Source of the DNA: a virus
Taxonomy: Duplodnaviria > Caudoviricetes
IMG/VR virus record: IMGVR_UViG_3300049979_000170
Location: 11,027 to 75,026 of that record
Length of the DNA stretch: 64,000 nt
Reading direction: 5' to 3' (one strand)
The notes under the pieces were generated by a model that had not been told where the DNA came from, made no database searches, and was given only the letters and a program-made list of their open reading frames with translations. Positions within the stretch are counted from its first letter, which is position 1, and each line of letters starts with the position of its first letter. Positions 4,003 through 63,200 of this stretch are shown here, piece by piece. The position numbers were made by a program, and so were the translations under genes.

Positions 4003-4340
4003 GAATCGCCCGTACAGCCCCGGATAGAGAAATTCTGGCCACGCGTCGCTGGGTATGGCTCAACGGCGCCCTGAGCCACGTGGTGAGGCTGGAGAGGCCA
4101 TCCAAGGACACCTACGAGCCGGACTTCGCCGCGCCCCGCTCCAATTGGTGCCGTGAGGAGTTCGGTGAGTCCTGCCTATCCTCGGAGTACGCGTTCGACC
4201 ACGTCGCTCTGAAGACCTCTCGGATGAACACCGAGGGAGTCTGGGCGTACGTCGAAGGGGTGTGGCGGTTCAAACACGCGACTGCCGCGTTCGTGTTCAA
4301 GATGCGCTGGTGGGGCGACAACCAACTGGATCGGTCCTGA
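3999..4340 (+). CDS. RW-motif family small protein
   Basis: WCREEFG internal motif; ends WRFKHATAAFVFKMRWWGDNQLDRS. Confidence 0.75.
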   Translation: MRIARTAPDREILATRRWVWLNGALSHVVRLERPSKDTYEPDFAAPRSNWCREEFGESCLSSEYAFDHVALKTSRMNTEGVWAYVEGVWRFKHATAAFVFKMRWWGDNQLDRS

Positions 4341-4594
4341 TGGGGTATTCGGTCCAGTTTCCTCCGGCGATCTGTTTCGATCACTCCGTTCGGTGGCGGA
4401 AACGCCCAAAGTTCGTGGACGATCTCGCCCGCCGGGATGCGAAGCTTTGGTGCACCGAACGATTCGGTCCGGAACTATCCAAGGAAGAAGTTCGGCAGGG
4501 CGCGCTCGTTACCGCGATATGGCGGGCGACGTGGCAGGGCTTCCATTTTCTCCGCCCCGAACACGCTTTCGAATTCAAAATGGTCTGGGGCTGA
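4340..4594 (+). CDS. RW-motif family small protein
   Basis: WCTERFG; ends FHFLRPEHAFEFKMVWG; TGATG overlaps on both sides. Confidence 0.75.
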   Translation: MGYSVQFPPAICFDHSVRWRKRPKFVDDLARRDAKLWCTERFGPELSKEEVRQGALVTAIWRATWQGFHFLRPEHAFEFKMVWG

Positions 4595-4824
4595 TGGCGA
4601 TCGATCTGAATCGAAATCCTACGATGCGAAGGATCGACAATCCGCATGTCGTTGTGATTCTCCATGCGATATCAAACACGGAAATCAGAGATATGCGCGA
4701 ATGGTGCACTGAGTCGAAAAATGCCGGTTTCTTTCTGTACTACTTCGACAAATCTCGTCAAGGCATGGTGTTTGTGTTCAGCCATGAGAACGTCGCGTTC
4801 GAATTCAAGATGAGGTGGGGTTGA
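4594..4824 (+). CDS. RW-motif family small protein
   Basis: Ends FVFSHENVAFEFKMRWG. Confidence 0.75.
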   Translation: MAIDLNRNPTMRRIDNPHVVVILHAISNTEIRDMREWCTESKNAGFFLYYFDKSRQGMVFVFSHENVAFEFKMRWG

Positions 4825-5042
4825 TGGCTACGCAATCGAGTGAACTCACCCTGAAGCTCGACCTCGGTCGGGACGCCTATCCGTTGGTCATCCGCAACGC
4901 TCTGGATTGGCTCGATGCCTTGCACTGGATTCTTGATTCGTCACGCCCAGGTCGATTCTCGTATGAACGCCACGTTGCCGGATGGACTTTCTACGTGACT
5001 GACCCCGATACAGCGGTTGAGTTCCGCATGCGGTGGTGCTGA
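4824..5042 (+). CDS. RW-motif family small protein
   Basis: Ends FYVTDPDTAVEFRMRWC. Confidence 0.75.
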   Translation: MATQSSELTLKLDLGRDAYPLVIRNALDWLDALHWILDSSRPGRFSYERHVAGWTFYVTDPDTAVEFRMRWC

Positions 5043-5120
5043 TTAAAGACTCTCGCTTGGAGTAAGACTTCCCGATCCATTAGGTATCCCACGTAGAACC
5101 TTTATTGCATAAATAAGGCC

Positions 5121-6011
5121 ATGTCAGACATGCGCCATATCATCAACATCTTGAATGAGAGCCAAGTGCTCGACGAGATGCCGATCGCTCACCACCAGAC
5201 CGTGGGCAACTTCGACAAGAATTCGTCCTTCCGTCACCCGGAGGATCGCAAGATTGTCACCTCGCCCAAAGCCGTGGCCAAGCTTCACAAGAAGTTCGCC
5301 AATAACGAGTTCGACTTCGGCATGTTCTTCGTGAACTCGCCGGAAGCGAACCGCCACACTGAGGTCGGCCGGGTCGATGCCGCCTGGATGGAGCAGAACA
5401 TGCCCAAGGCATGGACAGAGATCGCTCCGAACGTGAACCCGAATTCGATCAACATCGTCTTCACCAACAATAAGGGCTCAGAGCGCTACCCGATGACCCC
5501 CTGGATCATCGCGCATCGCCTTGGCCACGTGTTCTACGCGGCAGGCCGCCGATCGCCTGGGGCGGTCCTCTGGGCTGAAGCGGAGAAGACCGCGAACGAA
5601 TACACGGAATCCCTGCTGAAGCTGTTTGGCGTGACTTCGCCCCGTTCGCGTGGATACGGTGGCGGATACGGCGGATATGGTCGCGACGACTACAAGCAGA
5701 CCCAGGCGTACGATCAGTACAAGCGCCGCCTCTATCACGGCATCGGCACGATGAAGTCGGCCCGCGACAACAACCTGCGCAACCCACACGAATTCCTGCA
5801 CGAGATGCTTGCGCAGTACCTGACCACGGGCTCGATCAAGTTCCAGCCGATCAACCAGATCATCGACGGATACGCCTGGGGCAAGCCGCAGTACCGTGGC
5901 ACGCGCGATGCCGAGGAAGTCGCCCATCTGCTTCAGTCGTTCGAGAACGACATGAACTACCACATCGAGAACATCCTGCATCAGGCTGTTGGCTCGCTGT
6001 TCGTGATGTGA
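5121..6011 (+). CDS. late hypothetical protein, candidate virion/internal protein
   Basis: TAAATA at 5110-5115; N-terminus MSDMRHIINILNES. Confidence 0.7.
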   Translation: MSDMRHIINILNESQVLDEMPIAHHQTVGNFDKNSSFRHPEDRKIVTSPKAVAKLHKKFANNEFDFGMFFVNSPEANRHTEVGRVDAAWMEQNMPKAWTEIAPNVNPNSINIVFTNNKGSERYPMTPWIIAHRLGHVFYAAGRRSPGAVLWAEAEKTANEYTESLLKLFGVTSPRSRGYGGGYGGYGRDDYKQTQAYDQYKRRLYHGIGTMKSARDNNLRNPHEFLHEMLAQYLTTGSIKFQPINQIIDGYAWGKPQYRGTRDAEEVAHLLQSFENDMNYHIENILHQAVGSLFVM

Positions 6012-6442
6012 TGCGGTACCGCGAGCTTCTAGAAGGTCGAATCTTCCCCCTCGGCAAATCCGAGGAACAACTCATAGAGATGTTCATGGAAGGCCAGTGC
6101 TGGTCCCTGGCCATCGCTCACCACCGCCGCTACGGCTGGCCAATCTTCGTCCTGGGCGGGTACGAGGACGAGAACGAGCGGGACAATTGGGAGACTATCA
6201 CGTTCTACCACGTGATGATTCGCCATCCCTCGGGTCCTGCGCTCGATATCAAAGGACCGCAGGACGTATCTGAGTTGATGCAAGAATGGCCCGACGCGGA
6301 ATTCCTCCCCCTGACGGAGAATCAGTTGGTCAAGCTGTTCCGGAACCCCGAGATGGCACCTAAACCGGCAGAGATCGACTTCGCCGGAAAGGTGATCGAC
6401 TACTACATGAAGAAGAAGTACCCATCCTTATACCAGGGATAG
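6011..6442 (+). CDS. late hypothetical protein
   Basis: TGATG-coupled to the previous gene; N-terminus MRYRELLE; GQCWSLA...HVMI motif. Confidence 0.65.
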   Translation: MRYRELLEGRIFPLGKSEEQLIEMFMEGQCWSLAIAHHRRYGWPIFVLGGYEDENERDNWETITFYHVMIRHPSGPALDIKGPQDVSELMQEWPDAEFLPLTENQLVKLFRNPEMAPKPAEIDFAGKVIDYYMKKKYPSLYQG

Positions 6443-6946
6443 GGCACCACGAAGCTCGGTGGCCTGCGCCTCGACCATCTTGAGCAGGTCTTCCATGAAG
6501 GCGCGATCATGCAGACGAGGCCCACCGTGGTCGGTACCAACGTACTTGATCTCGCCATCGTGGCGGATCACCGCGTACTCGTTGTCCATCTCCCAGCCCA
6601 CGTGGGCGACCGAAATGATCTTGATCAGTTCGAATTCCGAATTTCTATTCAGAACGCGGCGAATCAGTTTCAGCATACGCTCGTTCGCAATATCTTTCTG
6701 CTCGCGATCGATGAACGCGTCGCGATGCTCGTAGTAGGCGTCATGGAACTCCTGCCCCATCACGTGGCAGAAGTCGTCTCCGACAGGCACGGCGTCGTAG
6801 AACGCCTGGGCGAACTCGATGCACGCGGTATAGTCGGTGAACTCGGTCGGACTGAATGACCGGAGCGGACGCCCCAGCACGAGAAAGTCACCGAGGGCGA
6901 CGCCATTGATCTGATGTTCCAGGCCGTAGACGGTGTTGTCGGGCAT
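6428..6946 (-). CDS. early hypothetical protein
   Basis: ATG at 6946 with CAGGAG RBS; promoter at 6972-6999. Confidence 0.65.
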   Translation of the reverse strand: MPDNTVYGLEHQINGVALGDFLVLGRPLRSFSPTEFTDYTACIEFAQAFYDAVPVGDDFCHVMGQEFHDAYYEHRDAFIDREQKDIANERMLKLIRRVLNRNSEFELIKIISVAHVGWEMDNEYAVIRHDGEIKYVGTDHGGPRLHDRAFMEDLLKMVEAQATELRGALSLV

Positions 6947-6971
6947 CGGAATGTCTCCTGATAATTTCACT

Positions 6972-6999
6972 AATATACACCGATACGGTACAACGTCAA
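6972..6999 (-). promoter_or_regulatory. sigma70-like early promoter TTGACG-N16-TATATT
   Basis: Direct sequence match upstream of an RBS and ATG. Confidence 0.65.
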
Positions 7000-7005
7000 C
7001 ACGGT

Positions 7006-7233
7006 TCAACCGAATGCGAGCTTGAACGCCACGGTGATGTCAGGATCGGAAAACTTGAAGGTCAGGAATTGCTCGCAATCCGAGACCCGCGTGTGCCAGT
7101 ATGCTCGGGTGTCCGGATGCTGATCGAGCCATAGACTGATCTGACGCTCCTGTCCCAAAGCTTTCTTCATCGTAATGGTGAATTCGGCCCAAGGAAAATC
7201 CACTTCCTTCGGCATACAATTGGCATGGTCCAT
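7006..7233 (-). CDS. RW-motif family small protein (divergent)
   Basis: Ends FKFSDPDITVAFKLAFG. Confidence 0.7.
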   Translation of the reverse strand: MDHANCMPKEVDFPWAEFTITMKKALGQERQISLWLDQHPDTRAYWHTRVSDCEQFLTFKFSDPDITVAFKLAFG

Positions 7234-7248
7234 AAAATATAGCCCGAA

Positions 7249-7650
7249 TCAACCCCAGCGCATCTTAAATTCAAATGCGTCGTCTGGTCTGGTAAAAAAC
7301 CCGTGGACCCTCTGATAACCGTACTGACTGTCTTCGTCCATTATGTAAACCGGAACTATGACGAACCGACCGAGCCGCCCGGTCCCGATCTGGATCATCG
7401 GACCCTTGCTGATCCAATTCGTACCAACCGAGAACCCGTCATCCCCAAATCGCTCCAGGCACCAGTCTCGAACCGCCAGAACAAGAACCTCGTCACGATC
7501 CGCCGCGATGACTTGATAGCAGTATTTGTCCGTGATCAGATTGAGATGGGTGATCTGATCCTCGTATGCGAGTCGCCGCAGATTCCCAAATTGCGCAACG
7601 ACGGCGTCACGAATCTTGCGGTTCGAGCGCCGCCGCTTGGCTGGATTCAT
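7249..7650 (-). CDS. RW-motif family protein
   Basis: WCLERFG; ends FFTRPDDAFEFKMRWG. Confidence 0.75.
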   Translation of the reverse strand: MNPAKRRRSNRKIRDAVVAQFGNLRRLAYEDQITHLNLITDKYCYQVIAADRDEVLVLAVRDWCLERFGDDGFSVGTNWISKGPMIQIGTGRLGRFVIVPVYIMDEDSQYGYQRVHGFFTRPDDAFEFKMRWG

Positions 7651-8072
7651 GGGCCGGGTGGCTTTACTTTGCTGAACTGGCCGAACGTGGCAACCTTCAC
7701 GTTCGGACCCGTCATCACCCTGTTGATGACCAAGGCGTCTTCGGAGTCGCCCATCATTTCCTTCGGATCAGGCTCCGGCTCCTTCACCGGAACCCCGTCA
7801 ATGAACTTCCTGTAGATTCGGGAGGTCTGATAGTACGACGGCACAGGAGTCATCGCAGCACGAGCGCGCTGCATCATGAGGATCATCTCGTCCATCATCT
7901 CGATGTCGTTCACCGGGATTTGTACGGCCTGCCTCACTCCGTAGTGGGAAAGCTCATGCACCAGATGATACGAGGCATCCTGCCCGTACGAATCCCGGAC
8001 GATCTCGAACGTCATCCCACCGTTGCCGGTGCTGAAGTGCGTGGATTCGAGCGTTTCGGTCTTCTTGCTCAT
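7647..8072 (-). CDS. hypothetical protein
   Basis: MSKKTETL start with ATGA overlaps. Confidence 0.6.
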   Translation of the reverse strand: MSKKTETLESTHFSTGNGGMTFEIVRDSYGQDASYHLVHELSHYGVRQAVQIPVNDIEMMDEMILMMQRARAAMTPVPSYYQTSRIYRKFIDGVPVKEPEPDPKEMMGDSEDALVINRVMTGPNVKVATFGQFSKVKPPGP

Positions 8073-8251
8073 GGGAATTTCCGTTCGGTGAACAACTTCT
8101 TCAGGTTGACCGGAAGAGATTCGTACTGTGCCTGACTGATCATCCCCGGACCAGGGAACGGAAGCGTCTGAAGGATCAGGAGCAAATCGAAAAGCTCGTC
8201 CGGCGTGGGGGCGGCCACATTGGTCGCACGAATGTATGTCGAGGGGAGCAT
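8069..8251 (-). CDS. small hypothetical protein
   Basis: Fills the operon gap; start uncertain. Confidence 0.4.
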   Translation of the reverse strand: MLPSTYIRATNVAAPTPDELFDLLLILQTLPFPGPGMISQAQYESLPVNLKKLFTERKFP

Positions 8252-8259
8252 ATCTGACC

Positions 8260-8499
8260 TTATGACCAACGCATGCGGAATTCAAAAGCGGCAGTCTCGT
8301 CATAGATGACGAATAGAGCGGTCGCAACAACCGGACGACGGCTGGGTGAGCCAAACCACGAGGGTGTGGTTTTCATCCACGTGTCGCTGGGCATCGACCC
8401 GTATCGCTCCTCACAGTACGCCGTGGCCTCATCGATCTGATCCTGCTCTTGGATGACGAACTCAGCCTCCCCATCCCACACCTCAAATTTCTCAGACAT
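8260..8499 (-). CDS. RW-motif family small protein
   Basis: YCEERYG; ends FVIYDETAAFEFRMRWS. Confidence 0.75.
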   Translation of the reverse strand: MSEKFEVWDGEAEFVIQEQDQIDEATAYCEERYGSMPSDTWMKTTPSWFGSPSRRPVVATALFVIYDETAAFEFRMRWS

Positions 8500-8550
8500 T
8501 GACTTCCTCCCAAATTGACGTATTTTCTATCATACAGGAGAGGGCAATCA

Positions 8551-8697
8551 ATGCGCAATTTTATCACGCGGGAAGCCGCAGCGATGCACGAACGTCTTCA
8601 GATGGCGAAAGCGCTTGGGATCGACGTGAGCCGGATCAAGAAGGTCCACGTCAGCGGTAAGACCCGGCTCGGGGTGATCGATGGATGTAAGCGTTGA
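8551..8697 (+). CDS. small hypothetical protein
   Basis: AGGAGAGG RBS then ATG; TTGA overlap with the next gene. Confidence 0.55.
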   Translation: MRNFITREAAAMHERLQMAKALGIDVSRIKKVHVSGKTRLGVIDGCKR

Positions 8698-8939
8698 TCA
8701 GCTTCGAATACCTCTTCCTGCCGGAGGACGACGAAGGGTTCTTGCACGAATTCAGTCTTCGTGGACCACTGTTCGAGGCCGATGACGCCGAGGTAGAAGC
8801 TGCGGATGCGTGGTGTCACGAGCATTTCGGCCCACCGGGGTTCGGCGAAGAATGCCGCTGGGTCGCGAACAGTACGCTGAACGCGTACTGGTTTCGCAAC
8901 GAGTTGGATGCGTTTACGTTTCGAATCAGGTGGGGATGA
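8694..8939 (+). CDS. RW-motif family small protein
   Basis: WCHEHFG; ends YWFRNELDAFTFRIRWG. Confidence 0.75.
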   Translation: MISFEYLFLPEDDEGFLHEFSLRGPLFEADDAEVEAADAWCHEHFGPPGFGEECRWVANSTLNAYWFRNELDAFTFRIRWG

Positions 8940-9178
8940 ACATGGCAAAGGACGCGAACAGAGGATCACACGGGCACATAACTCTAGTGCCCTTGGCTTA
9001 CCCCGCTGAGGTGCGCCGAGACATCTCGAACGCCGAGATCGGACGGATGCTCGAATGGGCCAAAGACCCGGAGATTCCCGGCCTCTTCCGTCACCGCTAC
9101 GATCATCAAAAGAAGGCGATGGTCGTCTCGTTCACGGACGAGAATGCCGCGTTCCAGTTCAAGGTCCGGTGGGGATGA
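8936..9178 (+). CDS. RW-motif family small protein
   Basis: Ends SFTDENAAFQFKVRWG; ATGA overlaps. Confidence 0.75.
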   Translation: MNMAKDANRGSHGHITLVPLAYPAEVRRDISNAEIGRMLEWAKDPEIPGLFRHRYDHQKKAMVVSFTDENAAFQFKVRWG

Positions 9179-9354
9179 ACGCACAACTCGACACCCTCCT
9201 CGACGCGCTCGATCGGGCCATCCAAACGCGGGAAGCAGCCGAAACCACTGGATGGACCAATCGCTCGCCCGAGGAAGCCCGCAAGATGGTTGCGGATGCC
9301 CGCCACGCCATCCATGACTTCGTCGCGGCACTCGCCACAGGGAAGCTACCATGA
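9175..9354 (+). CDS. small helical hypothetical protein
   Basis: ATGA-coupled ORF. Confidence 0.5.
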   Translation: MNAQLDTLLDALDRAIQTREAAETTGWTNRSPEEARKMVADARHAIHDFVAALATGKLP

Positions 9355-9542
9355 CCCCGGAAGAGAAGCGGGCTCGCTACGTCGAAGAGTTGATCTTCGG
9401 TCTCAAGACGGCCCTGGAATGCGCCGAGATCGTCCAGAAAGACCCGAGCAATCGAACCGCCCTTCGAACGCTCGACCGACACATCAAGATGTCAGCCGCG
9501 ATACATCAGGACATCGTCAAAACGGCCGAGGCGGATCGATGA
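9351..9542 (+). CDS. small helical hypothetical protein
   Basis: ATGA-coupled ORF. Confidence 0.5.
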   Translation: MTPEEKRARYVEELIFGLKTALECAEIVQKDPSNRTALRTLDRHIKMSAAIHQDIVKTAEADR

Positions 9543-9843
9543 AGTCCTCGCGCCGGATGTGCTTGCGAGCGTTGTTGTAACGCTCGCAATCCTCCCCGGT
9601 CATCGCCCGTGATCCAGTCCGGGCGTAGACCTCGTCCTCGATCGTCCGCTGAGCCGCGTATACGGCTGCGCCCCAGCGGCTGTCGATCTCCTTATCCCGC
9701 TTCCACTGGCGGTTCTCCCGGAGCGTCCTTGGGAGCCGAATCGTGTAGGCATATCCAAGCACCAGAAACGTGTACGTGTAGATGTACGCTCCGGCCCAGA
9801 ATCCCCGCGCGTGCAGGTTCGGCGTGAAGTCTTCGAGCTTCAT
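9517..9843 (-). CDS. hypothetical membrane protein
   Basis: Hydrophobic segment FWAGAYIYTYTFLVLGYAY. Confidence 0.55.
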   Translation of the reverse strand: MKLEDFTPNLHARGFWAGAYIYTYTFLVLGYAYTIRLPRTLRENRQWKRDKEIDSRWGAAVYAAQRTIEDEVYARTGSRAMTGEDCERYNNARKHIRREDFIDPPRPF

Positions 9844-10058
9844 CGGAAACACGCTACCAGTTGGGTGAGCCCGCCGATCAGGCCCACGGCGAAGAACAGG
9901 GTCGCCAGAATGACCCCGTCATGAACCCGCATGATCCGATTGTGCATATGGTCGTGCGCCGACGACCAGACGCGCAACTCCCTGCCACGCCGATAATGCC
10001 ATAGATTCCATAGAAATGACCGCCTGGGATCGACCATTCCACGTTCAAGTACACTCAT
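9840..10058 (-). CDS. hypothetical membrane protein
   Basis: C-terminal TM segment VILATLFFAVGLIGGL. Confidence 0.55.
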   Translation of the reverse strand: MSVLERGMVDPRRSFLWNLWHYRRGRELRVWSSAHDHMHNRIMRVHDGVILATLFFAVGLIGGLTQLVACFR

Positions 10059-10720
10059 CACAGCATCCCGTATTTCTTCAATTCGACATCGATCTCGCGA
10101 ATGCGAGCATGTAGTTCATTATTGTCGTCGTACCGCACCAGCCTATCGGGATAGTCTGGTACCTGCTGAGACGAATACTTCGTCTCGACCCGATCGCGGT
10201 ATCGGTCCGGAGACGAGACACGCCCGAACCGCGTGGTCACCGAACTCCCGTAACCGACAAGCTCCATCGATCGCTCCTGCCAGCAGCCGGTCACGACGCT
10301 CTTAGTGCGACGACCCTCCCTGGCATCGTCCCACTGCCGATGATACTCGGCCTCGCGTACGGCGAACCGCGCGTCGTTTTGGGCGATCTTGGCCAGAAGC
10401 ACGGTCTTCTCGTTGAGCAGCTTGAACGCGCCAGGACCGCGCATGTCGAGGACCCGGCGCTCGAACGCGTCATACGCCTTCAGAATCTCATCCCGATTTC
10501 GCTCTGTCCACAGCCGGACATGCTTGCGTGTTTCGTTAAGGTTTAACCCGTACCCGCCATCACGGAATCGAATGCCCTTCCACTTCTCATGATGCCCGTC
10601 GAAATCGAAGTGGACGCGGAATCGATCGTACCTATTCTGGTAGTGATTGAACAGCTTGATCTGGACACCCCGAAAAGGACTTGCGCGATTGTCCTTCCAA
10701 TTCATCACGAGATTGGCCAT
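10058..10720 (-). CDS. hypothetical protein
   Basis: 220-aa ORF, TGATG-coupled. Confidence 0.6.
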   Translation of the reverse strand: MANLVMNWKDNRASPFRGVQIKLFNHYQNRYDRFRVHFDFDGHHEKWKGIRFRDGGYGLNLNETRKHVRLWTERNRDEILKAYDAFERRVLDMRGPGAFKLLNEKTVLLAKIAQNDARFAVREAEYHRQWDDAREGRRTKSVVTGCWQERSMELVGYGSSVTTRFGRVSSPDRYRDRVETKYSSQQVPDYPDRLVRYDDNNELHARIREIDVELKKYGML

Positions 10721-10729
10721 CACGCCCCC

Positions 10730-11107
10730 TCAGGAAAACTTCATCCGGAACATAAACGCGGTTGCCGGATCAGTAAACGTGTACGTGTATATATCTCCGA
10801 TTTTCGTCGGCTCTTCGACCATCCCACCCTCAGGCGGAAACGTGACGAACGCAAAGTCCGGAAGAACCTCCATCAGAGGCTCCTCCCGGATGTGGACGAA
10901 CCCCTGGGCCTCCGACGACGAGACCCATTCATGCGCGGCCATAGCCACCATATGGGCGTCGATCCCATAGAGTAAGACAGAAGGGAGATGAACATTCAAG
11001 AAGTACAACGGCACCTTCAGAACCACCTGGGGGTGCTTGCGCCGGATGAACCCGCCGCCGAAACGCTCACGGTCCTCCCACTCTTCGTCGTTCAACAGGA
11101 TCGCCAT
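10730..11107 (-). CDS. RW-motif family protein
   Basis: Ends YTFTDPATAFMFRMKFS. Confidence 0.7.
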   Translation of the reverse strand: MAILLNDEEWEDRERFGGGFIRRKHPQVVLKVPLYFLNVHLPSVLLYGIDAHMVAMAAHEWVSSSEAQGFVHIREEPLMEVLPDFAFVTFPPEGGMVEEPTKIGDIYTYTFTDPATAFMFRMKFS

Positions 11108-11352
11108 CAGCACCACCGGAGGCGGAATTCAAACGCATCGCACTCGTGCTTGAAACAAAATACGAAATCGGTCCGATTAATCATGTGAGAAAGCAAATCG
11201 ACGAAGTGCCGGTCTTCGCACCACTTGCGAACTTCCGCCAGAAACGCATTGGAAGTCACGACCGTAGCGGGGCTGTCATTCTGCGGCCACGGAATCCAAC
11301 CGAATATGTGCGGATACGTGCGGTCCGGAAACGAATGGTAGCTCATGCTCAT
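11107..11352 (-). CDS. RW-motif family small protein
   Basis: WCEDRHF; ends FCFKHECDAFEFRLRWC. Confidence 0.75.
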   Translation of the reverse strand: MSMSYHSFPDRTYPHIFGWIPWPQNDSPATVVTSNAFLAEVRKWCEDRHFVDLLSHMINRTDFVFCFKHECDAFEFRLRWC

Positions 11353-11361
11353 GATTCGATC

Positions 11362-11577
11362 TTACCCGAATCTCAAGACGAACGCGAACGCCTCTTCGTA
11401 ATTTTTGAAGAAGGCGCAGTACTCAGACATCCTTGGAGTCAACTCGAAAGAATCGCATGTGCCGGACGAGCCTTGCTGCTCGAACCACTCATTGGCCTCG
11501 TGGAACCGTGTGAACTGAAGAGGGACACGATAGAGGTACGTCTGCCCAAGAGAGATGAAGCTGCATTCGATAATCAT
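11362..11577 (-). CDS. RW-motif family small protein (YEDAF subfamily)
   Basis: Ends FFKNYEEAFAFVLRFG. Confidence 0.75.
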   Translation of the reverse strand: MIIECSFISLGQTYLYRVPLQFTRFHEANEWFEQQGSSGTCDSFELTPRMSEYCAFFKNYEEAFAFVLRFG

Positions 11578-11586
11578 CTCGCGATC

Positions 11587-11862
11587 CTAACCGAATCGCA
11601 TCTGGAAGGCGAACGCGTCCTCATAGGAGGTGAAGCCAAACGAGCACTCCTGCTGCTCGAACAGGTTTTCCTCCACAAACAACTTGTAAATGGCGATCGG
11701 GAAAACGCCCGGCGTATGCTGGGCCAGCCATACCTCAGCGTCAGCGATCCTCTCCAGCATGCGCGTATCATCCTGATCACCCGAACTGTCCCGCAGAATC
11801 GGAAGTTCGACGCTATGCGTCAGGTGGACCCCGTAACGGGATAGGGAGATCGGCTTGATCAT
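11587..11862 (-). CDS. RW-motif family small protein (YEDAF subfamily)
   Basis: Ends FGFTSYEDAFAFQMRFG. Confidence 0.75.
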   Translation of the reverse strand: MIKPISLSRYGVHLTHSVELPILRDSSGDQDDTRMLERIADAEVWLAQHTPGVFPIAIYKLFVEENLFEQQECSFGFTSYEDAFAFQMRFG

Positions 11863-12063
11863 GCAAATTTCATCACGTACGAGAAGGCGTCCTCATACCG
11901 GACGAAATACATGTGTGTAATGATCCGTGGATACTTCAATTTCACAAACCGCCGCAATGCCCTGTTGAGAAACCCACCCCCTCGAAGGCTCAAGCTGGCC
12001 GTATACGGGAACGCGGAAGCTGTAGACACGGCCTCTGAGCGGTAAAGAAACGGTTTCGATCAT
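11859..12063 (-). pseudogene. Frameshifted RW-motif family gene (YEDAF subfamily)
   Basis: The ATG at 12063 frame (MIETVSL...RVPV...WVSQQG...) stops at 11893. The family C-terminus YFVRYEDAFSYVMKFA lies in the +1 frame, ending at 11859. Total span 205 nt = 3n+1. Confidence 0.65.
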
Positions 12064-12353
12064 CCGAATCTCATCAGAAACGCGAACGCATCCTCATAGC
12101 AGGTGAAGCCGATCCAGTACTCCTGCGCGGTCGCCCAGCTTTCAATCGCCGGGTTGAAGTCGAGGTTGATCACGATCGGATAGGCCGTGCCCATGCCGAC
12201 CTTGCGCTTCGACACCCCAGGGGTGTTCTTCTTGATCCACGCCCAAGCCTCGTCGATGAGGTCCCAAGTCTGCTCACCGTCGTCGAGATCGGGAAGGAGG
12301 ACCCGATGGGTGAAGAGGACGCCGTCGTGGGTCTCGTTGATGGGTACGATCAT
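12060..12353 (-). CDS. RW-motif family small protein (YEDAF subfamily)
   Basis: Ends IGFTCYEDAFAFLMRFG. Confidence 0.75.
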   Translation of the reverse strand: MIVPINETHDGVLFTHRVLLPDLDDGEQTWDLIDEAWAWIKKNTPGVSKRKVGMGTAYPIVINLDFNPAIESWATAQEYWIGFTCYEDAFAFLMRFG

Positions 12354-12411
12354 GGAGAGCGCCGAAATCGGTCCTAAATGCGATGAATGGCGACTCCATG
12401 ATAAATAAAGG

Positions 12412-12957
12412 ATGTGGTCATGTAAACATTGCAAACAAGAATTCGACTATTCATCGACAAGCCAGAAGGCCAACCATTCTCGGTGGTGCATTGCCAAGCC
12501 GGGTAGCCGCGACACTACGGTGTTGAAGGCGGCACAAATGCGCGTTCAAAACGAGAAGCTTGGACTGATGACCAAGTTTATCGTTAAGTGCGATCGATGT
12601 GAATCAGATGTAGAAGTTACTGAGAGAAAAAACCTTCATCCCGTAAAAGAAAAATACTTCTGTGGTAGGAAATGCAGCAATTTTCGCGGCAGCGGTCTCG
12701 AATGGCACAAAGGGAAGCGTGAACTTACCAGATATACAACCATATGCTTTGCGCATCATGAAAAGAAATGCGTTGTATGTGGCGAGAACAAAATCGTGGC
12801 TGTTCACCACCTTGACGAGAATCATAAGAACAACGATCCATCGAATCTCGTTCCAATGTGTCCGACTCATCATCAATACTGGCACAGTCCACATAGAGCG
12901 GACGTAGAACAGTCTGTGCAGGAATATATCGGTAATTGGATCAATAAAAACAACTAA
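12412..12957 (+). CDS. Zinc-finger HNH endonuclease (free-standing homing endonuclease-like)
   Basis: CKHC..., CDRC...FCGRKC and CVVCG...VHHLDENHKNNDPSNLVPMCPTHH HNH core; TAAATA at 12402-12407; AT-rich. Confidence 0.8.
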   Translation: MWSCKHCKQEFDYSSTSQKANHSRWCIAKPGSRDTTVLKAAQMRVQNEKLGLMTKFIVKCDRCESDVEVTERKNLHPVKEKYFCGRKCSNFRGSGLEWHKGKRELTRYTTICFAHHEKKCVVCGENKIVAVHHLDENHKNNDPSNLVPMCPTHHQYWHSPHRADVEQSVQEYIGNWINKNN

Positions 12958-12966
12958 TACAACCTG

Positions 12967-13042
12967 TGGTGGAGTACTAGGGAATCGAACCCTACGAAAA
13001 CTGCTTGCAAAACAGCCGGTGTCCCCAGCTACCTCGTACCCC
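12967..13042 (-). tRNA. trnA: tRNA-Ala(TGC)
   Basis: Acceptor GGGGTAC/GTACTCC with the G3:U70 Ala identity pair, discriminator A, anticodon loop TT-TGC-AA, encoded CCA; wobble-rich anticodon stem. Confidence 0.8.
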
Positions 13043-13055
13043 AAGCCACAGTTGT

Positions 13056-13220
13056 AAAAACTCTCCCTTAGCAGGGGAGAGGCCGTCTTAGTACAACATC
13101 TAAGTCCGGATGCAACCCCGGAATCCCTTCGCGTGGATCGCTCCACGTTACTTTGCCTAACCATCGCGATGGGCAGGCGCGTGAGGAAGCCGTTCTCACC
13201 TCAGTAGACGTTGGTAGTCT
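13056..13220 (-). ncRNA. Candidate multi-hairpin structured RNA between tRNA-Met and tRNA-Ala
   Basis: About seven consecutive hairpins (including CGTGGA-GCGA-TCCACG with a GNRA loop), ending in CTCTCCC/GGGAGAG plus TTTTT; no credible ORF. Confidence 0.45.
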
Positions 13221-13226
13221 CGTTGT

Positions 13227-13303
13227 TGGTTGCGGAGCTTGGATTTGAACCAAGGACCTCTAGGTTATGAGCCTAGCAAGCTACCAGACTGCTCCACCCC
13301 GCA
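13227..13303 (-). tRNA. trnM: tRNA-Met(CAT), initiator-like
   Basis: Closely resembles bacterial tRNA-fMet (GGGGTGGAGCAGTCTGGTAGC..CTCATAA..GGTTCAAATCC); encoded CCA. Confidence 0.9.
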
Positions 13304-13326
13304 ACAGCCAACAACGTTGAGATATT

Positions 13327-13401
13327 TGGAGCGGGCGATCGGGATCGAACCGACGACAGCCACATTGGCAATGTGGTACTCTACCGCTGAGTTACACCCG
13401 C
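13327..13401 (-). tRNA. trnG: tRNA-Gly(GCC)
   Basis: GCGGGTG acceptor, anticodon stem CCACA/TGTGG with loop TT-GCC-AA, discriminator U, encoded CCA. Confidence 0.93.
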
Positions 13402-13439
13402 GCACCAAATAACGAATCTATTTAGTAACAGACTCGATT

Positions 13440-13682
13440 ATCGTAGGCGAGCAAGGTCAAAACCTTCGGGAACGGCCGGTTCAAATGGCCTGGGGTCCGT
13501 GTTGGAACCCTTCCGAGGGGGAATCGAACCCCCGTAGCATGACCAGGGCTAGAGCTATGCTCCCTACCGCGATCCTTCCGCTACCCCAAACCTGGGACGC
13601 AGTGATTACATAGTAGCGCCCCTGATGACGCCTCGAATGACTACCACTGCCGGGGCGCCTTGACGCCCAACTCGCCTTCGAT
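13440..13682 (-). ncRNA. Candidate ~245-nt structured ncRNA with a T-loop, upstream of the tRNA operon
   Basis: Own promoter TTGACA-N17-TATATT (13689-13717). The 5' ATCGAAGGCGAG pairs with the 3' CTCGCCTACGAT (11 of 12 bp). Internal GGGGG-TTCGATT-CCCCC T-arm and several hairpins. Confidence 0.55.
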
Positions 13683-13756
13683 TCACCCAATATAGGGATT
13701 CCTAGCGAGGCTGTCAACTAATTCGTCGAACAATTTCTACGAAAATAAATACCCCT

Positions 13757-14290
13757 ATGAGGTACCATGAAATTGTGTCCGAGGGACGCACGATCGAAAT
13801 TGACGGCAAGAGTCCATACGAGAAAGAAAGTAAGATGATGAGGTTCTTTGAGAATCCATCACTATCTCAGATAATTTCCCTGGCTGCTAGGTTTGATCTT
13901 CGTGGCAGCGCTGATGGTGAATCTGTTTTCGTATGGGACGCAAGGCAGATCATTCATCACAATGCGCGTTATCATTTAAGGCACGAATCTCAATTCGGCG
14001 AGGATAATGTGCCTTATGCGTTCAATTTCTACGTCATAAACAAGAATACGAAGTCGGATAGACAGACTCGTGAGGAATGGGCTTCGTCGAAGCGGTGCGA
14101 CTTTTACTTGGTTAATCCTCTAACGGTCATCAGCGTGATGAAAAATTGGGGTCCAAAACTTGAGTTGATTCCAAGTTTCTCCCGGCTCGTTCAGGGCGCG
14201 TCGATGATTCCTACGATTCGGTCCAAACCCTCGGCTCCGGATCAGTCGTCTTCTTCGTCCTCGCCTGTTCCTGGGTCGATCACCGCGTAA
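13757..14290 (+). CDS. late hypothetical protein, candidate internal protein
   Basis: TAAATA at 13746-13751; N-terminus MRYHEIVSE. Confidence 0.6.
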   Translation: MRYHEIVSEGRTIEIDGKSPYEKESKMMRFFENPSLSQIISLAARFDLRGSADGESVFVWDARQIIHHNARYHLRHESQFGEDNVPYAFNFYVINKNTKSDRQTREEWASSKRCDFYLVNPLTVISVMKNWGPKLELIPSFSRLVQGASMIPTIRSKPSAPDQSSSSSSPVPGSITA

Positions 14291-14865
14291 TCGCTGATTC
14301 GGACCTGGGTGAATCCCGCCTTCACGAGAGCGCGTTCTGACGCGTTTACGCACCCGAAGTTCTCACCGGGGCAGTGCCACGCGCCCGTGACGACGATCGG
14401 GTTGTCTGGCTGAAGCTTCATCGCCTTGACTGCTTTGGCTACTTTCGGGGGCCAGTTTGGTGTGAGGTTATCACAGGCGAAGATTCGCCCTGCGATGAGC
14501 CCGGCATTCTTCGCACGGTGCAGGGCTCCTTCGAGTGCCCGACTGTAGGTCATGTACATGGGGATTTCGTCGCTCAGTTCCCCATCGACCACGAGGATAT
14601 GACCGGTCCAGTGGTTGAGTTCGATGATCAATCCGTCGCGTGATGCACGGGCATCGTATCGCCCAAGAAGGTTGTCGGCTGAGCCGCAGGCTGACCCCGG
14701 ATGGGTGAGCACCAACAGGGGCACCACGGGCTGTTCCGGAACAGGCTTTGCCTTCGCCGCCTTGGCGGGCTTCATAGGCGCTGGTGGGGCTGCTGGGGCG
14801 TGCGGGGCGGTGGTGGGTTCGTTCTGCGCGGCTTCGAGCAGATTGATGATCGAGCGAATATCCAT
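14242..14865 (-). CDS. late protein, possibly isochorismatase/cysteine-hydrolase-like fold
   Basis: TAAATA at 14871-14876; MDIRSIINLLE; Pro/Ala linker; LLVLTHPGS...IVVTGAW...GCV pattern. Confidence 0.55.
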   Translation of the reverse strand: MDIRSIINLLEAAQNEPTTAPHAPAAPPAPMKPAKAAKAKPVPEQPVVPLLVLTHPGSACGSADNLLGRYDARASRDGLIIELNHWTGHILVVDGELSDEIPMYMTYSRALEGALHRAKNAGLIAGRIFACDNLTPNWPPKVAKAVKAMKLQPDNPIVVTGAWHCPGENFGCVNASERALVKAGFTQVRISDYAVIDPGTGEDEEDD

Positions 14866-14970
14866 ACTCGTATTTAGAAAAAAATATTGACCGCCGATTC
14901 GCCCGATTCGTACAACGCAGGCATTCCACGGCACCCAATTTTTCCATGCATATTTTTAGGCATTTTTCTC

Positions 14971-15585
14971 ATGGCCCGTCATCATTACCAGAAGTGCAAT
15001 CCGGAATCTGATTTTGGCTACCGCGACCTCATCTACAAGGTGATGGTCGAGGTTGGTACGCCGATGTTTTCCAACGACGTGTGGGCGTACGCGGTCGAGA
15101 AGGGTTACGACAAGCTTCTCTATCGGAACGGTGAGACCTTGGCGAAGACCCCGCATGCGACCGTGTATGCGCGGATGTCTGAGGAGGCCAAGCGCGGCGG
15201 CTTCCTGAAGCGGACCGAGGTGACTGGTCGAGCCTACCTGTACGAGCTTGTGCCGGGCAAGACGCCCAAGAAAGGGCGCAAGCTCGATTACAAGTCGAAG
15301 AACGTCTACGTGTATGCGTTGTACGAGGCGGAGACGGAGATTCCGTTCTACGTCGGCATGGGTGTTGGTCAGCGCAAGGACGTTCATCTGGTTGGTGAGT
15401 CGCACAGCCCGGTGGTGAACAAGGTGGTCTCGCACCTTCGTTCCCAGGGTCGGACTCCGGTGGCGAAGATTCTGGAGCAGCGTTTGGACCGCCACACTGC
15501 TCGGAAGTTTGAGGCCGCTTATATCAAGGAATGGGGGCGTCGCAGTTACGATCTAACTGGCGTTCTGTTTAACCAAAAAGCTTGA
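14971..15585 (+). CDS. HARE-HTH-like plus GIY-YIG (LEM-3-like) nuclease
   Basis: N-terminal YRDLIYKVM...KTPHATVYARM winged-helix pattern; C-terminal YVYALY...PFYVGMG...R...H...E GIY-YIG pattern. Confidence 0.65.
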   Translation: MARHHYQKCNPESDFGYRDLIYKVMVEVGTPMFSNDVWAYAVEKGYDKLLYRNGETLAKTPHATVYARMSEEAKRGGFLKRTEVTGRAYLYELVPGKTPKKGRKLDYKSKNVYVYALYEAETEIPFYVGMGVGQRKDVHLVGESHSPVVNKVVSHLRSQGRTPVAKILEQRLDRHTARKFEAAYIKEWGRRSYDLTGVLFNQKA

Positions 15586-15627
15586 TATGCATTGACCTGA
15601 CGAATCCGCAGCCATATCCCACGGGGT

Positions 15628-15927
15628 ATGGCCGCGTTCGTTCGAACTCCTGCGTTGCAGTTCCCCATCGACCCCTCTTGGGTCGCGGTGATTCTTCGCC
15701 TGAGCAACATGCAGTTGTTCGAGGGTCGCCACGAGGACATCGTGGCGTGGATCGAGACGGACGAGGTTCCTGGGACGGTATTTTTCTATCACCGGGAGTG
15801 GACTGAGCCTTCGCAAAAGCCGCTCCCCAAGTTCTTCGACCCCAACATGCCCCATAAGGGTCGGGACCACGTTTACGTGTTCGACAATCCGGACGCGGCG
15901 TTCGAATTCAAGCTTCGGTGGGCCTGA
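15628..15927 (+). CDS. RW-motif family small protein
   Basis: Ends YVFDNPDAAFEFKLRWA. Confidence 0.75.
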   Translation: MAAFVRTPALQFPIDPSWVAVILRLSNMQLFEGRHEDIVAWIETDEVPGTVFFYHREWTEPSQKPLPKFFDPNMPHKGRDHVYVFDNPDAAFEFKLRWA

Positions 15928-16193
15928 TGAATTGGAGATTCAAGCTCTACCCTTCTGAGAAGTGGAATTTTCTGAAACAGCACAATCCGGGAATGGCTCA
16001 TGCGTTCTGTCCGGATGACAACGAGTTTTGGAAGCACGAGATCGGAGAACGTGAGGACTTGGTGAGTCCCGCCATCGCATGGTGCCACGAGCATTTCGGA
16101 AAGCCGTTCACCGGGGTGTGGGCGCATTCGAGTTCATGGATTATGTTCGGCGATGACAACCGAGCGTTCGAATTCAAGCTTCGGTGGGCTTGA
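15927..16193 (+). CDS. RW-motif family small protein
   Basis: WCHEHFG; ends IMFGDDNRAFEFKLRWA. Confidence 0.75.
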   Translation: MNWRFKLYPSEKWNFLKQHNPGMAHAFCPDDNEFWKHEIGEREDLVSPAIAWCHEHFGKPFTGVWAHSSSWIMFGDDNRAFEFKLRWA

Positions 16194-16450
16194 TGGCTAA
16201 GTGGGTGACTACGGCGGCGACCGCCGACCATCATACCGGGTCCGTTCATGTTCGGATCGAGCGATCGATGTTTTCGAACGACCTATTGGTTGAGATGGTT
16301 TCTTGGTTGGCCAGACACGATCGCCCTGGTAGCTTCTCTTATCGGGACGCCCGGCGAGAACTTAACTTCAACAAAAAGAAAAATCAGGTTGTGAGTTTCC
16401 ACATTACCGATCCGGATGTGGCGATGGAATTCAAGATGCGGTGGTTCTGA
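16193..16450 (+). CDS. RW-motif family small protein
   Basis: Ends FHITDPDVAMEFKMRWF. Confidence 0.75.
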   Translation: MAKWVTTAATADHHTGSVHVRIERSMFSNDLLVEMVSWLARHDRPGSFSYRDARRELNFNKKKNQVVSFHITDPDVAMEFKMRWF

Positions 16451-16680
16451 TGGCACGGCGGATTGTTCCGAGCGACGGCATCGATTTACCTGCGGGGTGC
16501 ACGAACGTTCGTATACCCCGAGGTCCCGGACGGCCGGGTCGTGCGGAGATGGTCAACTGGTTGATGGAGAATGATCGCCCAGGGGTGTTCCGGTACACCC
16601 GTATAAACGGCTTCAGCGCGATCTACTTCTATATCTCAGACCCTGGCGTGGCGTTCGAATTCAAGATGCGGTTTGGCTGA
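16450..16680 (+). CDS. RW-motif family small protein
   Basis: Ends FYISDPGVAFEFKMRFG. Confidence 0.75.
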   Translation: MARRIVPSDGIDLPAGCTNVRIPRGPGRPGRAEMVNWLMENDRPGVFRYTRINGFSAIYFYISDPGVAFEFKMRFG

Positions 16681-16931
16681 TGGCGACACAATGCCAAGTC
16701 CTGCCTGAAGTGCACCGGACGAGCTTCCATTTCCTCCAGGTGGTGGGGCCGCGCTTTTCGTTGTCGAAGGAGCCGATCCGAGAGTGGCTGAGTAATCCAT
16801 CTCGGCCGGGCTTCTGGACGTGGGGTGGATGGTGGCTGGCGAGCGAGGGTAACTTCAGCCCGAACGACTGTATCGAGGTTGCGATCACTGATTCTCAAGT
16901 GGCATTCGAGTTTAAAATCCGATGGGTATAA
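16680..16931 (+). CDS. RW-motif family small protein
   Basis: Ends VAITDSQVAFEFKIRWV. Confidence 0.75.
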   Translation: MATQCQVLPEVHRTSFHFLQVVGPRFSLSKEPIREWLSNPSRPGFWTWGGWWLASEGNFSPNDCIEVAITDSQVAFEFKIRWV

Positions 16932-17170
16932 AAGTCCGCCAGATCAAGGTTGATGAGCCCGAGGTGGCCGGTATGTACCCGTTTGGTTTCTTTTACATGC
17001 ACGAGAATCAACGGTGTGACGAGATTATCAAATGGTGTGAGGATCAGTTCGGGGAGTTTTCCTTCAAACACGCGCGCGGCCGGATGGCCTGTGATATCGG
17101 ACCGATCCTCCGCTACGTGCTGTTTCGCGATCAATTGGACGCGATTGCGTTCAAGCTCCGGTGGATGTGA
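16922..17170 (+). CDS. RW-motif family small protein
   Basis: WCEDQFG; ends VLFRDQLDAIAFKLRWM; start ATG lies inside the upstream Arg-Trp codons (CGATGG). Confidence 0.75.
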   Translation: MGIKVRQIKVDEPEVAGMYPFGFFYMHENQRCDEIIKWCEDQFGEFSFKHARGRMACDIGPILRYVLFRDQLDAIAFKLRWM

Positions 17171-17436
17171 TGGCAGCGATCGTGAGAGATCAGGGGAAGT
17201 TAGGCCCCGGTGCAATCCCGGTCTGGTTCGACTGTTTGAGCCGAGTGGTGTGCCCGATCGACGAGATGATCACTCCAATGGGCAGCATACTGAGTTGGTG
17301 TGTAGATAATTTAGACGGACTTGTTTATTTTGAACTCGATCCCTTCTCCAATAATGATGAACACTATGGGACCAAATACGTCTTGTGGTTCTCTGACGAA
17401 AATGCGGCGTTTGCGTTCAAGATGAGGTGGAAATAA
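17170..17436 (+). CDS. RW-motif family small protein
   Basis: Ends LWFSDENAAFAFKMRWK. Confidence 0.75.
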   Translation: MAAIVRDQGKLGPGAIPVWFDCLSRVVCPIDEMITPMGSILSWCVDNLDGLVYFELDPFSNNDEHYGTKYVLWFSDENAAFAFKMRWK

Positions 17437-17762
17437 TGTCGAATAAAAGTATGAGGAGATTTAGCGGATTTATCGGCGAGAAAAAGCTCTCTAAGTTATC
17501 GAGGAAAACCGATTTTACATCGGTAACTCTTTACCACGACCTCAAGAATCCGAAAAAGAGTCCGATTCCGGAGATTGAAGATTGGTGCAGGACATACGCG
17601 GTTGGCCGTATCTGTTATCAGGTGTTTGAGAATTGGGAACCGTATGCGGTATACACACCGGATGGTTCTCAACGGACTGAATACCGAATAACCGGCCATC
17701 GTCATTGTGTGACATTCGAGAATTCGAATGTGGCATTTGCGTTTAAGATGCAATGGGCCTGA
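17436..17762 (+). CDS. RW-motif family protein
   Basis: Ends VTFENSNVAFAFKMQWA. Confidence 0.75.
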   Translation: MSNKSMRRFSGFIGEKKLSKLSRKTDFTSVTLYHDLKNPKKSPIPEIEDWCRTYAVGRICYQVFENWEPYAVYTPDGSQRTEYRITGHRHCVTFENSNVAFAFKMQWA

Positions 17763-18214
17763 TGGGTTGGCTGAAGCGGGCTTGGGAATGGCTCCCGCGC
17801 ATCACGATCCAAAAGAAGCCGTTGTCGCCGGGAAGTCCATCCATTCTGAGGCGGCGAGCGGCCGAGGCCGCCGCGATGCTCAAGGCCGGTTGCTGGCTCG
17901 ATCGCGCATCCTACGACGCCCGTGGCCTGCATGTCCCTCTTACGGTGGTGAAGATTCATCGCCGCCAAGAGGATGGATTGCTGATCCCCGACTTCATCTC
18001 GCTGATCGCCTGGACCGGGGAAAACGTAGAGGGGGAAATCGTCTACGAGGTCATTGACGAGCATGTCGAGGCGGGCAGCAGCACGATACGTGTCCCTCAC
18101 AACGGCGGACTTCATACTATCCGAACACCCCGTTATGTCCGGATCGGGTGCTGGCATTCGTTCTCGTTCACCAATCCGGATTCGGCGTTCGCGTTCAAGA
18201 TGCGGTGGGCTTGA
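17762..18214 (+). CDS. RW-motif family protein with an extended N-terminus
   Basis: Ends FSFTNPDSAFAFKMRWA. Confidence 0.75.
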   Translation: MGWLKRAWEWLPRITIQKKPLSPGSPSILRRRAAEAAAMLKAGCWLDRASYDARGLHVPLTVVKIHRRQEDGLLIPDFISLIAWTGENVEGEIVYEVIDEHVEAGSSTIRVPHNGGLHTIRTPRYVRIGCWHSFSFTNPDSAFAFKMRWA

Positions 18215-59379: not shown

Positions 59380-59648
59380 TGCGATTCCGCTTCACCCACA
59401 CGTATCGCCCACACAGCCAATGGGCGCATCGTTTCGATCTCTATGAGATGGGACCGCGAGGCTGCTCGATGGAATGGCGCCGCCTACGCAACACCTTGAT
59501 TCATGACGCGCGGGTCTGGTGCGGAGTGAATCTCGGCCATGCCGGACCGAAGGGGTCCGACGCGCACTGGTACTATTCTATCTCCGGAGAAGTCCTCTGG
59601 ATTCGAACGGACGCCGATGCGTTCGCGTTCAAGCTGATGTTCGGCTAA
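59379..59648 (+). CDS. RW-motif family small protein
   Basis: WCGVNLG; ends LWIRTDADAFAFKLMFG. Confidence 0.75.
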   Translation: MRFRFTHTYRPHSQWAHRFDLYEMGPRGCSMEWRRLRNTLIHDARVWCGVNLGHAGPKGSDAHWYYSISGEVLWIRTDADAFAFKLMFG

Positions 59649-59863
59649 AACCAGCGCATCTTGAACGCAAAGGCGTGCTCGGGCTTCTCGAAGAATATGA
59701 CCGGCCCCATCCCGCTCGAATTCGCCCGGAGCGCATAGATGATATCGTTCTCCATAAGCCAGACACGCGCCTCCCAGCGCAGATCACAATAGCCTGCGGG
59801 GCCTCGGGCGCTGGTGGAGACGACCAGTTTTTGAGGCAGTATCAGTGGGGGCGTCAGAACCAT
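59645..59863 (-). CDS. RW-motif family small protein
   Basis: Ends IFFEKPEHAFAFKMRWF; start ATG within the upstream RW codons. Confidence 0.75.
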   Translation of the reverse strand: MVLTPPLILPQKLVVSTSARGPAGYCDLRWEARVWLMENDIIYALRANSSGMGPVIFFEKPEHAFAFKMRWF

Positions 59864-60078
59864 CGCATCTTGAACGCGAATGCGTCCTCCGGGTTGGTGA
59901 AGAAGAGCTTGAACCCCTCGTACTTAGTAGCTCTCACTTCTGACTTGATTTCGTTTTGTTTCAGCCATTCCGAGATATCTCTCCTCATAATATATTTGGT
60001 AACAGACCAATTGATAACATGATCGTTATCGATCATTGAATACGGAATCTTCAATTCGACGTTGTAGATGAATCTCAT
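59854..60078 (-). CDS. RW-motif family small protein
   Basis: Ends LFFTNPEDAFAFKMRWF. Confidence 0.75.
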   Translation of the reverse strand: MRFIYNVELKIPYSMIDNDHVINWSVTKYIMRRDISEWLKQNEIKSEVRATKYEGFKLFFTNPEDAFAFKMRWF

Positions 60079-60305
60079 AGCCATCTCATCTTAAACGCGA
60101 AGGCGTCATCCGTGCTCCGGAATTTTACCACGATATACTGGTCGTATTCACAGACATGAGCCATAAAAGGCTCGGAAGTCTGTTCGTTCAGCCAGCGAAG
60201 TGTTTCCACCCACACCTCTTCGCTGGCCTGTCGTTTACGAAGGACGAACTTCGTCCAGGCGGGGCCGACCCAATGCTTGTGGGCAACCCAATCAACCTTG
60301 GGCAT
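60075..60305 (-). CDS. RW-motif family small protein
   Basis: Ends VKFRSTDDAFAFKMRWL. Confidence 0.75.
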   Translation of the reverse strand: MPKVDWVAHKHWVGPAWTKFVLRKRQASEEVWVETLRWLNEQTSEPFMAHVCEYDQYIVVKFRSTDDAFAFKMRWL

Positions 60306-63092: not shown

Positions 63093-63119
63093 GTTGCCCC
63101 CATGGAATCAACCCACCCC

Positions 63120-63200
63120 AATATGCGTGAATCTGGAAGCATGTCAACCTAAAAATCGTCAAACCAAATCAGTTGACTAATTCCGATTCAAAGGTATATT
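63120..63200. promoter_or_regulatory. Divergent pair of sigma70-like promoters
   Basis: Minus strand: TTGACA-N16-CATATT (63147-63120). Plus strand: TTGACT-N16-TATATT (63173-63200). Confidence 0.6.

Follow-up and report, generated by a model that had tools for sequence, protein, structure and literature searches.

How are the members of a large family of small phage genes, arranged in same-strand arrays, translated? This question is raised by a 64,000-nucleotide (nt) stretch of viral DNA from the class Caudoviricetes (hereafter, the window), corresponding to bases 11027-75026 of the 75,026-nt IMG/VR contig IMGVR_UViG_3300049979_000170. Using a profile of the C-terminal 16 residues, we identified approximately 60 open reading frames (ORFs) in the contig, 56-150 amino acids (aa) long except for one of 377 aa, whose products end in the sequence h-x-F-x(4)-D-A-F-x-F-K-[ML]-R-W-x-stop. 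We consider it probable that the tail codons of each family gene serve as the Shine-Dalgarno (SD) sequence and overlapping start of the next gene, coupling the translation of the two, and that this function has shaped the choice of the Arg codon and of the last codon.

A first-pass annotation of the window, made from the sequence alone, had proposed that the conserved C-terminal codons double as the ribosome-binding site or start codon of the following gene. The junctions of the 53 canonical family ends in the whole contig agree with this proposal in 34 cases. In 20/53 copies, the next ATG (in one case a GTG) lies on the last base of the stop codon, forming TGATG or TAATG; 12/53 copies have an ATGA or GTGA junction; and in 2/53 the ATG is found inside the Arg-Trp codons CGA-TGG, 10 nt before the end of the stop. 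The start is located 2-25 nt past the stop in 9/53 copies, while 10/53 have no close downstream gene. Both sequences that had been quoted as examples are present where they had been placed: ATGAGGTGGGGTTGATG at 4810-4826, with the stop TGA at 4822-4824 and the ATG at 4824-4826, and GATGAGGTGGAAATAATG at 17421-17438 (+), which consists of GATGAGGTGG, then AAA and a TAA with an overlapping ATG. Between positions 4790 and 17765, the start overlaps the stop at 14 of 21 family 3′ ends (8 TGATG, 1 TAATG, 4 ATGA and 1 ATG inside CGATGG). Overlapping junctions are more frequent in the family than among the other predicted genes (34/53 vs 22/78, p=6.5e-5), a comparison weakened by the crude non-family gene calls and by the tendency of arrays to favour overlap.

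The two CGATGG junctions had been described as leaving the downstream gene no other start. At 59863 (minus strand), this is the case, as the ATG is the sole in-frame ATG, GTG or TTG for at least 28 codons. At 16922, alternative in-frame starts exist at GTG 16964 and ATG 16973, the latter behind GAGGTGG. Nevertheless, 16922 appears to be the likelier start, because the ortholog in a close relative (contig L001, described below) lacks the Met of 16973 and its N-terminus is conserved from the first Met. Regarding the TGATG junctions, those at 4594, 4824, 11107, 16193, 16450, 16680 and 17170 show an additional regularity: the downstream gene very often opens with ATG GCN (Met-Ala), which generates a recurrent TGATGGC.

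The first-pass annotation had also suggested comparing the Arg codon of motif copies with and without a coupled downstream gene. The background Arg codons are CGC (33-37%), CGT (20-21%), CGG (22%), AGG (4-5%) and AGA (3-5%), with CGC and CGT (CGY) accounting for 53-58%. At the overlapping junctions of this contig (n=29), the motif Arg is encoded by AGG 11 times, CGG 11, AGA 4, and CGA, CGC and CGT once each; at non-overlapping ends (n=14), AGG is absent, CGG occurs twice, and AGA, CGA, CGC and CGT three times each. Hence, AGG or CGG (NGG) is found at 22/29 overlapping and 2/14 non-overlapping ends (Fisher p=2e-4), and CGY is scarcer at the overlapping ones (Fisher p=0.009). Compared with the background, AGG is enriched ~8-fold at overlapping junctions (p=7e-8) and CGG ~1.5-fold. 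We observed the same bias in three further contigs. In one of them, the 266-kb IMG/VR contig G004, AGG is present at 13/33 overlapping and 3/25 non-overlapping ends, and CGY at 3/33 and 14/25, respectively (p=1.4e-4). When the four contigs were pooled, which share no significant DNA similarity except for two short, low-identity matches of G004 to G001 and G002, NGG was found at 52/72 vs 13/45 ends (p=8e-6) and CGY at 6/72 vs 23/45 (p=3e-7). Additionally, GGA is over-represented as the last codon at ATGA junctions.

To relate these codons to ribosome binding, we modelled the duplex formed with the 3′ end of 16S rRNA, taken as the presumed anti-SD sequence of the host. Family TGATG starts had a mean modelled energy of -7.7 kcal/mol, compared with -5.0 at the overlapping junctions of non-family genes and -4.1 at randomly chosen ATGs, and the stronger modelled SD at family TGATG starts was replicated in G004. 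When the Arg codon alone was swapped, the modelled values were -9.6 kcal/mol for AGG, -7.0 for CGG and -3.7 for CGY. At coupled junctions with orthologs in L001, we found AGG replaced by CGG and vice versa, never by CGY. Since pairwise identity among the family copies of the contig is only 17-38%, their shared codons are not inherited. Because of the codon bias, its replication, the modelled pairing, the L001 codon switches and this paralog divergence, the Arg codon appears to set the SD sequence and to be under selection where the start overlaps. Two results weigh against this reading: the ATGA junctions have a weaker modelled SD (-5.8 kcal/mol), and the two CGATGG junctions lack any (-1.65 kcal/mol).

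Based on these observations, we infer the following mechanism of coupling. The same-strand family arrays would probably be read as polycistronic mRNAs, in which each gene ends with ..AAG AUG AGG/CGG UGG NNN UGA. In this ending, GAGGUG or GGUGG is formed by the Met-Arg-Trp codons and could pair with the 3′ end of 16S rRNA, and the stop overlaps the next AUG, either as UGAUG or, through the last codon, as AUGA. The ribosome that ends one gene would be held at the next start, or a new 30S subunit would be recruited, i.e., by termination-reinitiation or SD-assisted coupling. The motif residues would be kept for the protein, while two synonymous features, the choice of Arg codon and the wobble base of the last codon, would be tuned for the downstream gene. 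A unit that extends from mid-motif to mid-motif would bring its own SD and start; therefore, a single gene could be lost or doubled in register, through recombination between motifs, without disturbing expression. For the annotation of such arrays, this mechanism implies the rule that the start be placed at the stop overlap and not at the upstream GTG.

The first-pass annotation had considered that some of the motif conservation may be selected at the RNA level. Of this idea, the part that stands concerns two sites, the Arg codon and the wobble base of the last codon, and RNA-level selection is limited to these; the motif itself is retained in uncoupled copies, which use CGC or CGT for Arg. 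Because these copies keep the motif, and because the motif is predicted to form a C-terminal helix, its amino acids are probably conserved mainly at the protein level. Arg is retained somewhat more often when coupled (72/75 vs 45/57, p=0.004), although weak or decayed copies may inflate this difference. At position -7, GAA is mildly enriched (15/20 copies vs 37-46% in the background). A bias toward GCG before Phe was considered as a motif-specific RNA constraint and rejected, since this codon context is favoured throughout the genome (67% in the background). In 20 junction windows of 71 nt, the mean folding z was ~0 (range -3.4 to +1.9) and no common hairpin was found; as they were no more stably folded than shuffled sequences, nothing indicates that the SD is masked. 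Separately, Phe-Glu-Phe is usually encoded by TTC GAA TTC, so that many copies contain the EcoRI site GAATTC and the palindrome TTCGAA, e.g., 4796-4807, 15901-15912 and 16167-16178.

Could the whole arrangement be a by-product, with the motif kept for the protein only, the overlaps reflecting the compaction of phage genomes, and the SD appearance of AGG/CGG-TGG being unselected? The retention of the predicted helix in uncoupled copies is what such a view expects, non-family genes overlap as well, and most synonymous sites of the motif show no motif-specific bias. We nevertheless consider it unlikely, given that in four contigs the Arg codon differs strongly between overlapping and non-overlapping ends in favour of a codon that is rare genome-wide. 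A still less probable explanation is selection on the third-position G of the Arg codon for an in-frame GTG start at -10 (present in N-GG-TGG) and not for an SD. At most junctions, this GTG shares its frame with the ATG, which lies at -1 or -4, and the -10 position is the one used at both CGATGG junctions (sole start at 59863, likelier start at 16922). However, AGG and CGG would both provide the GTG, yet their enrichments differ (~8-fold against ~1.5-fold), a preference that therefore fits GAGGUG pairing and not start creation. Moreover, the junctions already have an ATG at -1 or -4, and selection for a start at -10 would favour CGA or AGA, which give ATG.

The proposed coupling of each gene to the tail of its neighbour raises the question of how the arrays change over time. 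The first-pass annotation had envisaged an accordion-like shuffling of cassettes by recombination between conserved 3′ ends, with breakpoints in the motif. We compared the contig with one close relative, represented by two Logan contigs of sample ERR11040811 (L001 and L044), whose predicted proteins in syntenic regions are 28-97% identical to those studied here (92-97% for conserved structural genes and 28-92% for family members). At the genes at 4340..5042, the junction type is unchanged in the L044 orthologs. The L001 array syntenic to that at 15628..18214 has ten genes. The family differences comprise four single-cassette events and one three-gene block, each of which may be a gain or a loss.

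In the first event, L001 has an extra gene (11301-11531) that separates its orthologs of 16680-16931 and 16922-17170. A manual count of identities showed that the last 30 nt of gene 16680-16931 match the end of the extra L001 gene at 26/30 positions (87%) and that of its ortholog at 19/30 (63%), while the preceding 36 nt show the reverse, with 28/36 (78%) for the ortholog and 18/36 (50%) for the extra gene. In the second, the contig studied here has an additional gene of 72 aa (contig-relative window coordinates -4179..-3961); it is missing from L044, where the junction changes parentage within the Arg-Trp-x codons. Both events are consistent with recombination between copies of the motif, which would be the putative substrate. 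The third is a tandem duplicate in L001 of the ortholog of 12060-12353, and the 3′ ends of the duplicates are nearly identical. The fourth is the absence from L001 of the cassette that opens with ATGAGGTGG. Its insertion is exact, with the stop of the non-family gene 18265-18681 on one side and the conserved GGGAACCTCGG on the other, and both boundaries coincide with stop codons. In the fifth, 213 unrelated nt take the place of a three-gene family block in L001, and homology restarts exactly at the TGATG of the next gene. Regarding the breakpoints, in two of the events the crossover lies inside the last 4-10 motif codons, whereas the fourth and fifth end at stop codons, all with respect to one close relative.

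Several findings speak against a pervasive exchange of cassettes at the motif. Adjacent pairs do not significantly exceed distant ones in codon identity at same-residue sites (0.52 vs 0.47 and 0.50 vs 0.49), so the adjacent copies show no excess synonymous identity and recombination at the motif is occasional or rare. Of the accordion-like picture, the in-register indels are observed; a frequent exchange between neighbours is not. The surrounding region contains many non-family indels, and plasticity is not specific to the family, because non-family genes nearby also come and go. Likewise, the identical 26-nt DNA reported at the ends of two adjacent genes is real, but it is the top of a continuous distribution and not an outlier, since non-adjacent, distant copies share exact runs of 24, 23 and 21 nt. 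The two L001 orthologs of the repeat-bearing genes differ from each other at the repeat, where local gene conversion is possible. That gene conversion or unequal crossing-over homogenises array 3′ ends in general, with the codon bias hitch-hiking, is the least credible alternative, for although this tract and the nearly identical ends of the L001 duplicates would suit it, the codon identity of adjacent pairs is no higher than that of distant ones, and the bias has the same direction in contigs nearly without DNA similarity (two short, low-identity matches of G004 to G001/G002).

Non-family genes of the relative that are missing here are located at 7724-8827 and 10271-12061 of L044 and at 3750-4514 and 5693-5983 of L001, and the whole early region is highly plastic. 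Regarding the search for further relatives, a megablast of 8 kb against the phage collection gave no match; scans of IMG/VR and JGI metagenomes with the neighbouring 458-aa tail protein retrieved distant relatives only (35-53% identity), unusable for breakpoint mapping; and a search with the 138-aa neighbour had the Logan relative as its sole match.

If the motif acts in both translation and exchange, a broader proposal can be made, which we regard as speculative and rather doubtful: the Arg-Trp-x-stop end, by making each copy self-expressing (SD, start, body and borders of recombination-prone motif DNA), may have allowed the expansion of the family to 60-90 or more copies per jumbo-phage genome, the one-residue tail after Trp then being held by the SD-to-start spacing. 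If true, such self-expressing units would be the translation-level counterpart of a gene-cassette system.

Among the genes of the contig are those for a large terminase, a tail tube protein, five tRNAs and a 969-aa tail sheath; the sheath shares 44-48% identity with its counterparts in the jumbo phages Atu_ph07, Phosso and PA5oct, and because of this content it can be read as a fragment of a jumbo myovirus related to these phages. An Rfam scan of the sequence found tRNAs only. The family is large: in a profile search of 1.84 billion representative proteins, 1187 clusters reached E<=0.001, with alignments that in nearly all cases extend to the last residue of the database protein. We counted 89 profile matches in G004, 2-3 each in Atu_ph07 and PA5oct, and 31 in the cultured Sinorhizobium phage Phosso, where every one is annotated as hypothetical. 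The Phosso copies (region 95000-100000) end in ..LFKL-[TAS]-W-x, with Thr, Ala or Ser and not Arg before Trp, and there an SD-like GGAG is made by the Trp codon and the following codon. Ten family members had no match in Pfam at or near the curated cut-offs and none in PHROGs at E<=0.01; overall, Pfam, PHROGs, Foldseek/PDB, VIA-align and ESM Atlas provided no name or function for the family, and a full-text literature search for the motif strings retrieved no paper mentioning it. An AlphaFold model of one member (predicted local distance difference test score of 74) has a beta-beta-alpha-beta-beta-alpha arrangement in which the motif is a confident C-terminal helix, and fold searches gave only generic two-layer alpha/beta matches (Z<7). 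Two-domain fusions in which the first motif is internal occur in public data (database proteins P0009 and P0010). Given these fusions, frameshift fusion between neighbouring genes was considered, and no slippery site was seen, although no dedicated search was made.

The arrays and individual features are listed in Table 1. The second family gene of the pair at 8694..9178 is joined through ATGA to a 59-aa non-family ORF. Within the nine-gene array, no promoter- or terminator-like sites above chance were found. Right after it, at 18211-18258 (+), there is a promoter-like repeat of the type TTGAyn..N..ATAGCGTACATTAGGG, which is kept in L001; other copies are located at 56269-56316 (-) and 48007-48030, upstream of two other genes, and this repeat may be a phage promoter class. 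Between the six-gene array and the tRNA cluster (12967-13401), a 181-aa Cys/His-rich ORF (12412-12957, +) with an HNH-like HH..N..H pattern is 68% identical to its L001 counterpart.

Table 1. Family arrays and related features, in window coordinates
Feature	Position	Strand
Three family genes (4340-4594, 4594-4824, 4824-5042), joined by TGATG	4340..5042	+
Two family genes with ATGA overlap (AGG TGG GGA TGA)	8694..9178	+
Array of six family genes, ..RF-G variant in most; mixed junctions: TGATG, ATGA (two) and 9-nt spacer (two)	10730..12434	-
Three-gene family block, replaced in L001	11111..11865	-
Nine-gene family array, eight overlapping junctions	15628..18214	+
26-nt repeat, first copy, 3′ end of gene 15628-15927	15898..15923	+
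26-nt repeat, second copy, 3′ end of gene 15927-16193	16164..16189	+
Chimeric 3′ end of gene 16680-16931; ATG 16922-16924 inside CGA TGG	16902..16931	+
Family cassette without counterpart in L001	18681..19103	+
Three family genes; gene 59645-59863 starts at ATG 59863-59861 inside upstream CGA TGG	59645..60305	-
Further family array with TGATG, ATGA and TAGTG junctions; includes the 377-aa protein	60513..63168	-
377-aa protein with family C-terminus	60991-62127	-

The family offers an unusually clean natural experiment on dual coding, as one motif is present ~120 times across unrelated contigs, some copies being overlapped by a downstream gene and others not, and the accompanying shift in Arg codon provides a quantitative readout of selection for an SD inside coding sequence. 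Furthermore, learning how this large unnamed family, which is also present in the cultured phage Phosso, is expressed and turned over is a first step to studying its members.

Parts of this arrangement resemble known systems. In poxviruses, tandem gene families known as genomic accordions expand and contract by unequal recombination. The phage arrays share with them the tandem paralogs, the copy-number differences between close relatives and, in two events, breakpoints in shared sequence. In contrast, the copies here are old and highly diverged (20-30% identity), with homology limited to the ~20-30 nt of the 3′ motif, and the events observed are few. As in integron cassettes, small promoterless genes are arranged in arrays and depend on their context for expression; unlike them, the family junctions have no structured recombination site, and expression would be coupled in translation. 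In E. coli, the ribosome-binding site of a neighbour constrains the synonymous codons at the 3′ ends of genes. The preference seen here, for a rare and purine-rich Arg codon exclusively at ends where the following gene requires an SD, is of the same kind, with the difference that it is centred on one codon of one family motif, which makes it unusually easy to measure.

The closest comparison is with overlapping gene pairs. In most prokaryote groups, 50-70% of the gene pairs overlapping by ATGA or TGATG have an SD inside the upstream gene (PMC6728339), and 13 of 14 tested overlapping pairs were strictly coupled (Huber et al. 2019, PMC6728339). Like these pairs, the family genes are co-directional, overlap by 1 or 4 nt and carry SD-like sequence within the final codons of the upstream member, and 32/53 family junctions belong to the termination-reinitiation overlap classes (ATGA/GTGA or TGATG/TAATG). 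Unlike in the pairs of Huber et al., coupling in the phage arrays is deduced from sequence, and a conserved Arg-Trp protein motif supplies the SD in ~60 paralogs, recurring at dozens of junctions. The mechanism would be ordinary, textbook translational coupling, and its special feature would be that one conserved protein motif gives the same coupler dozens of times.

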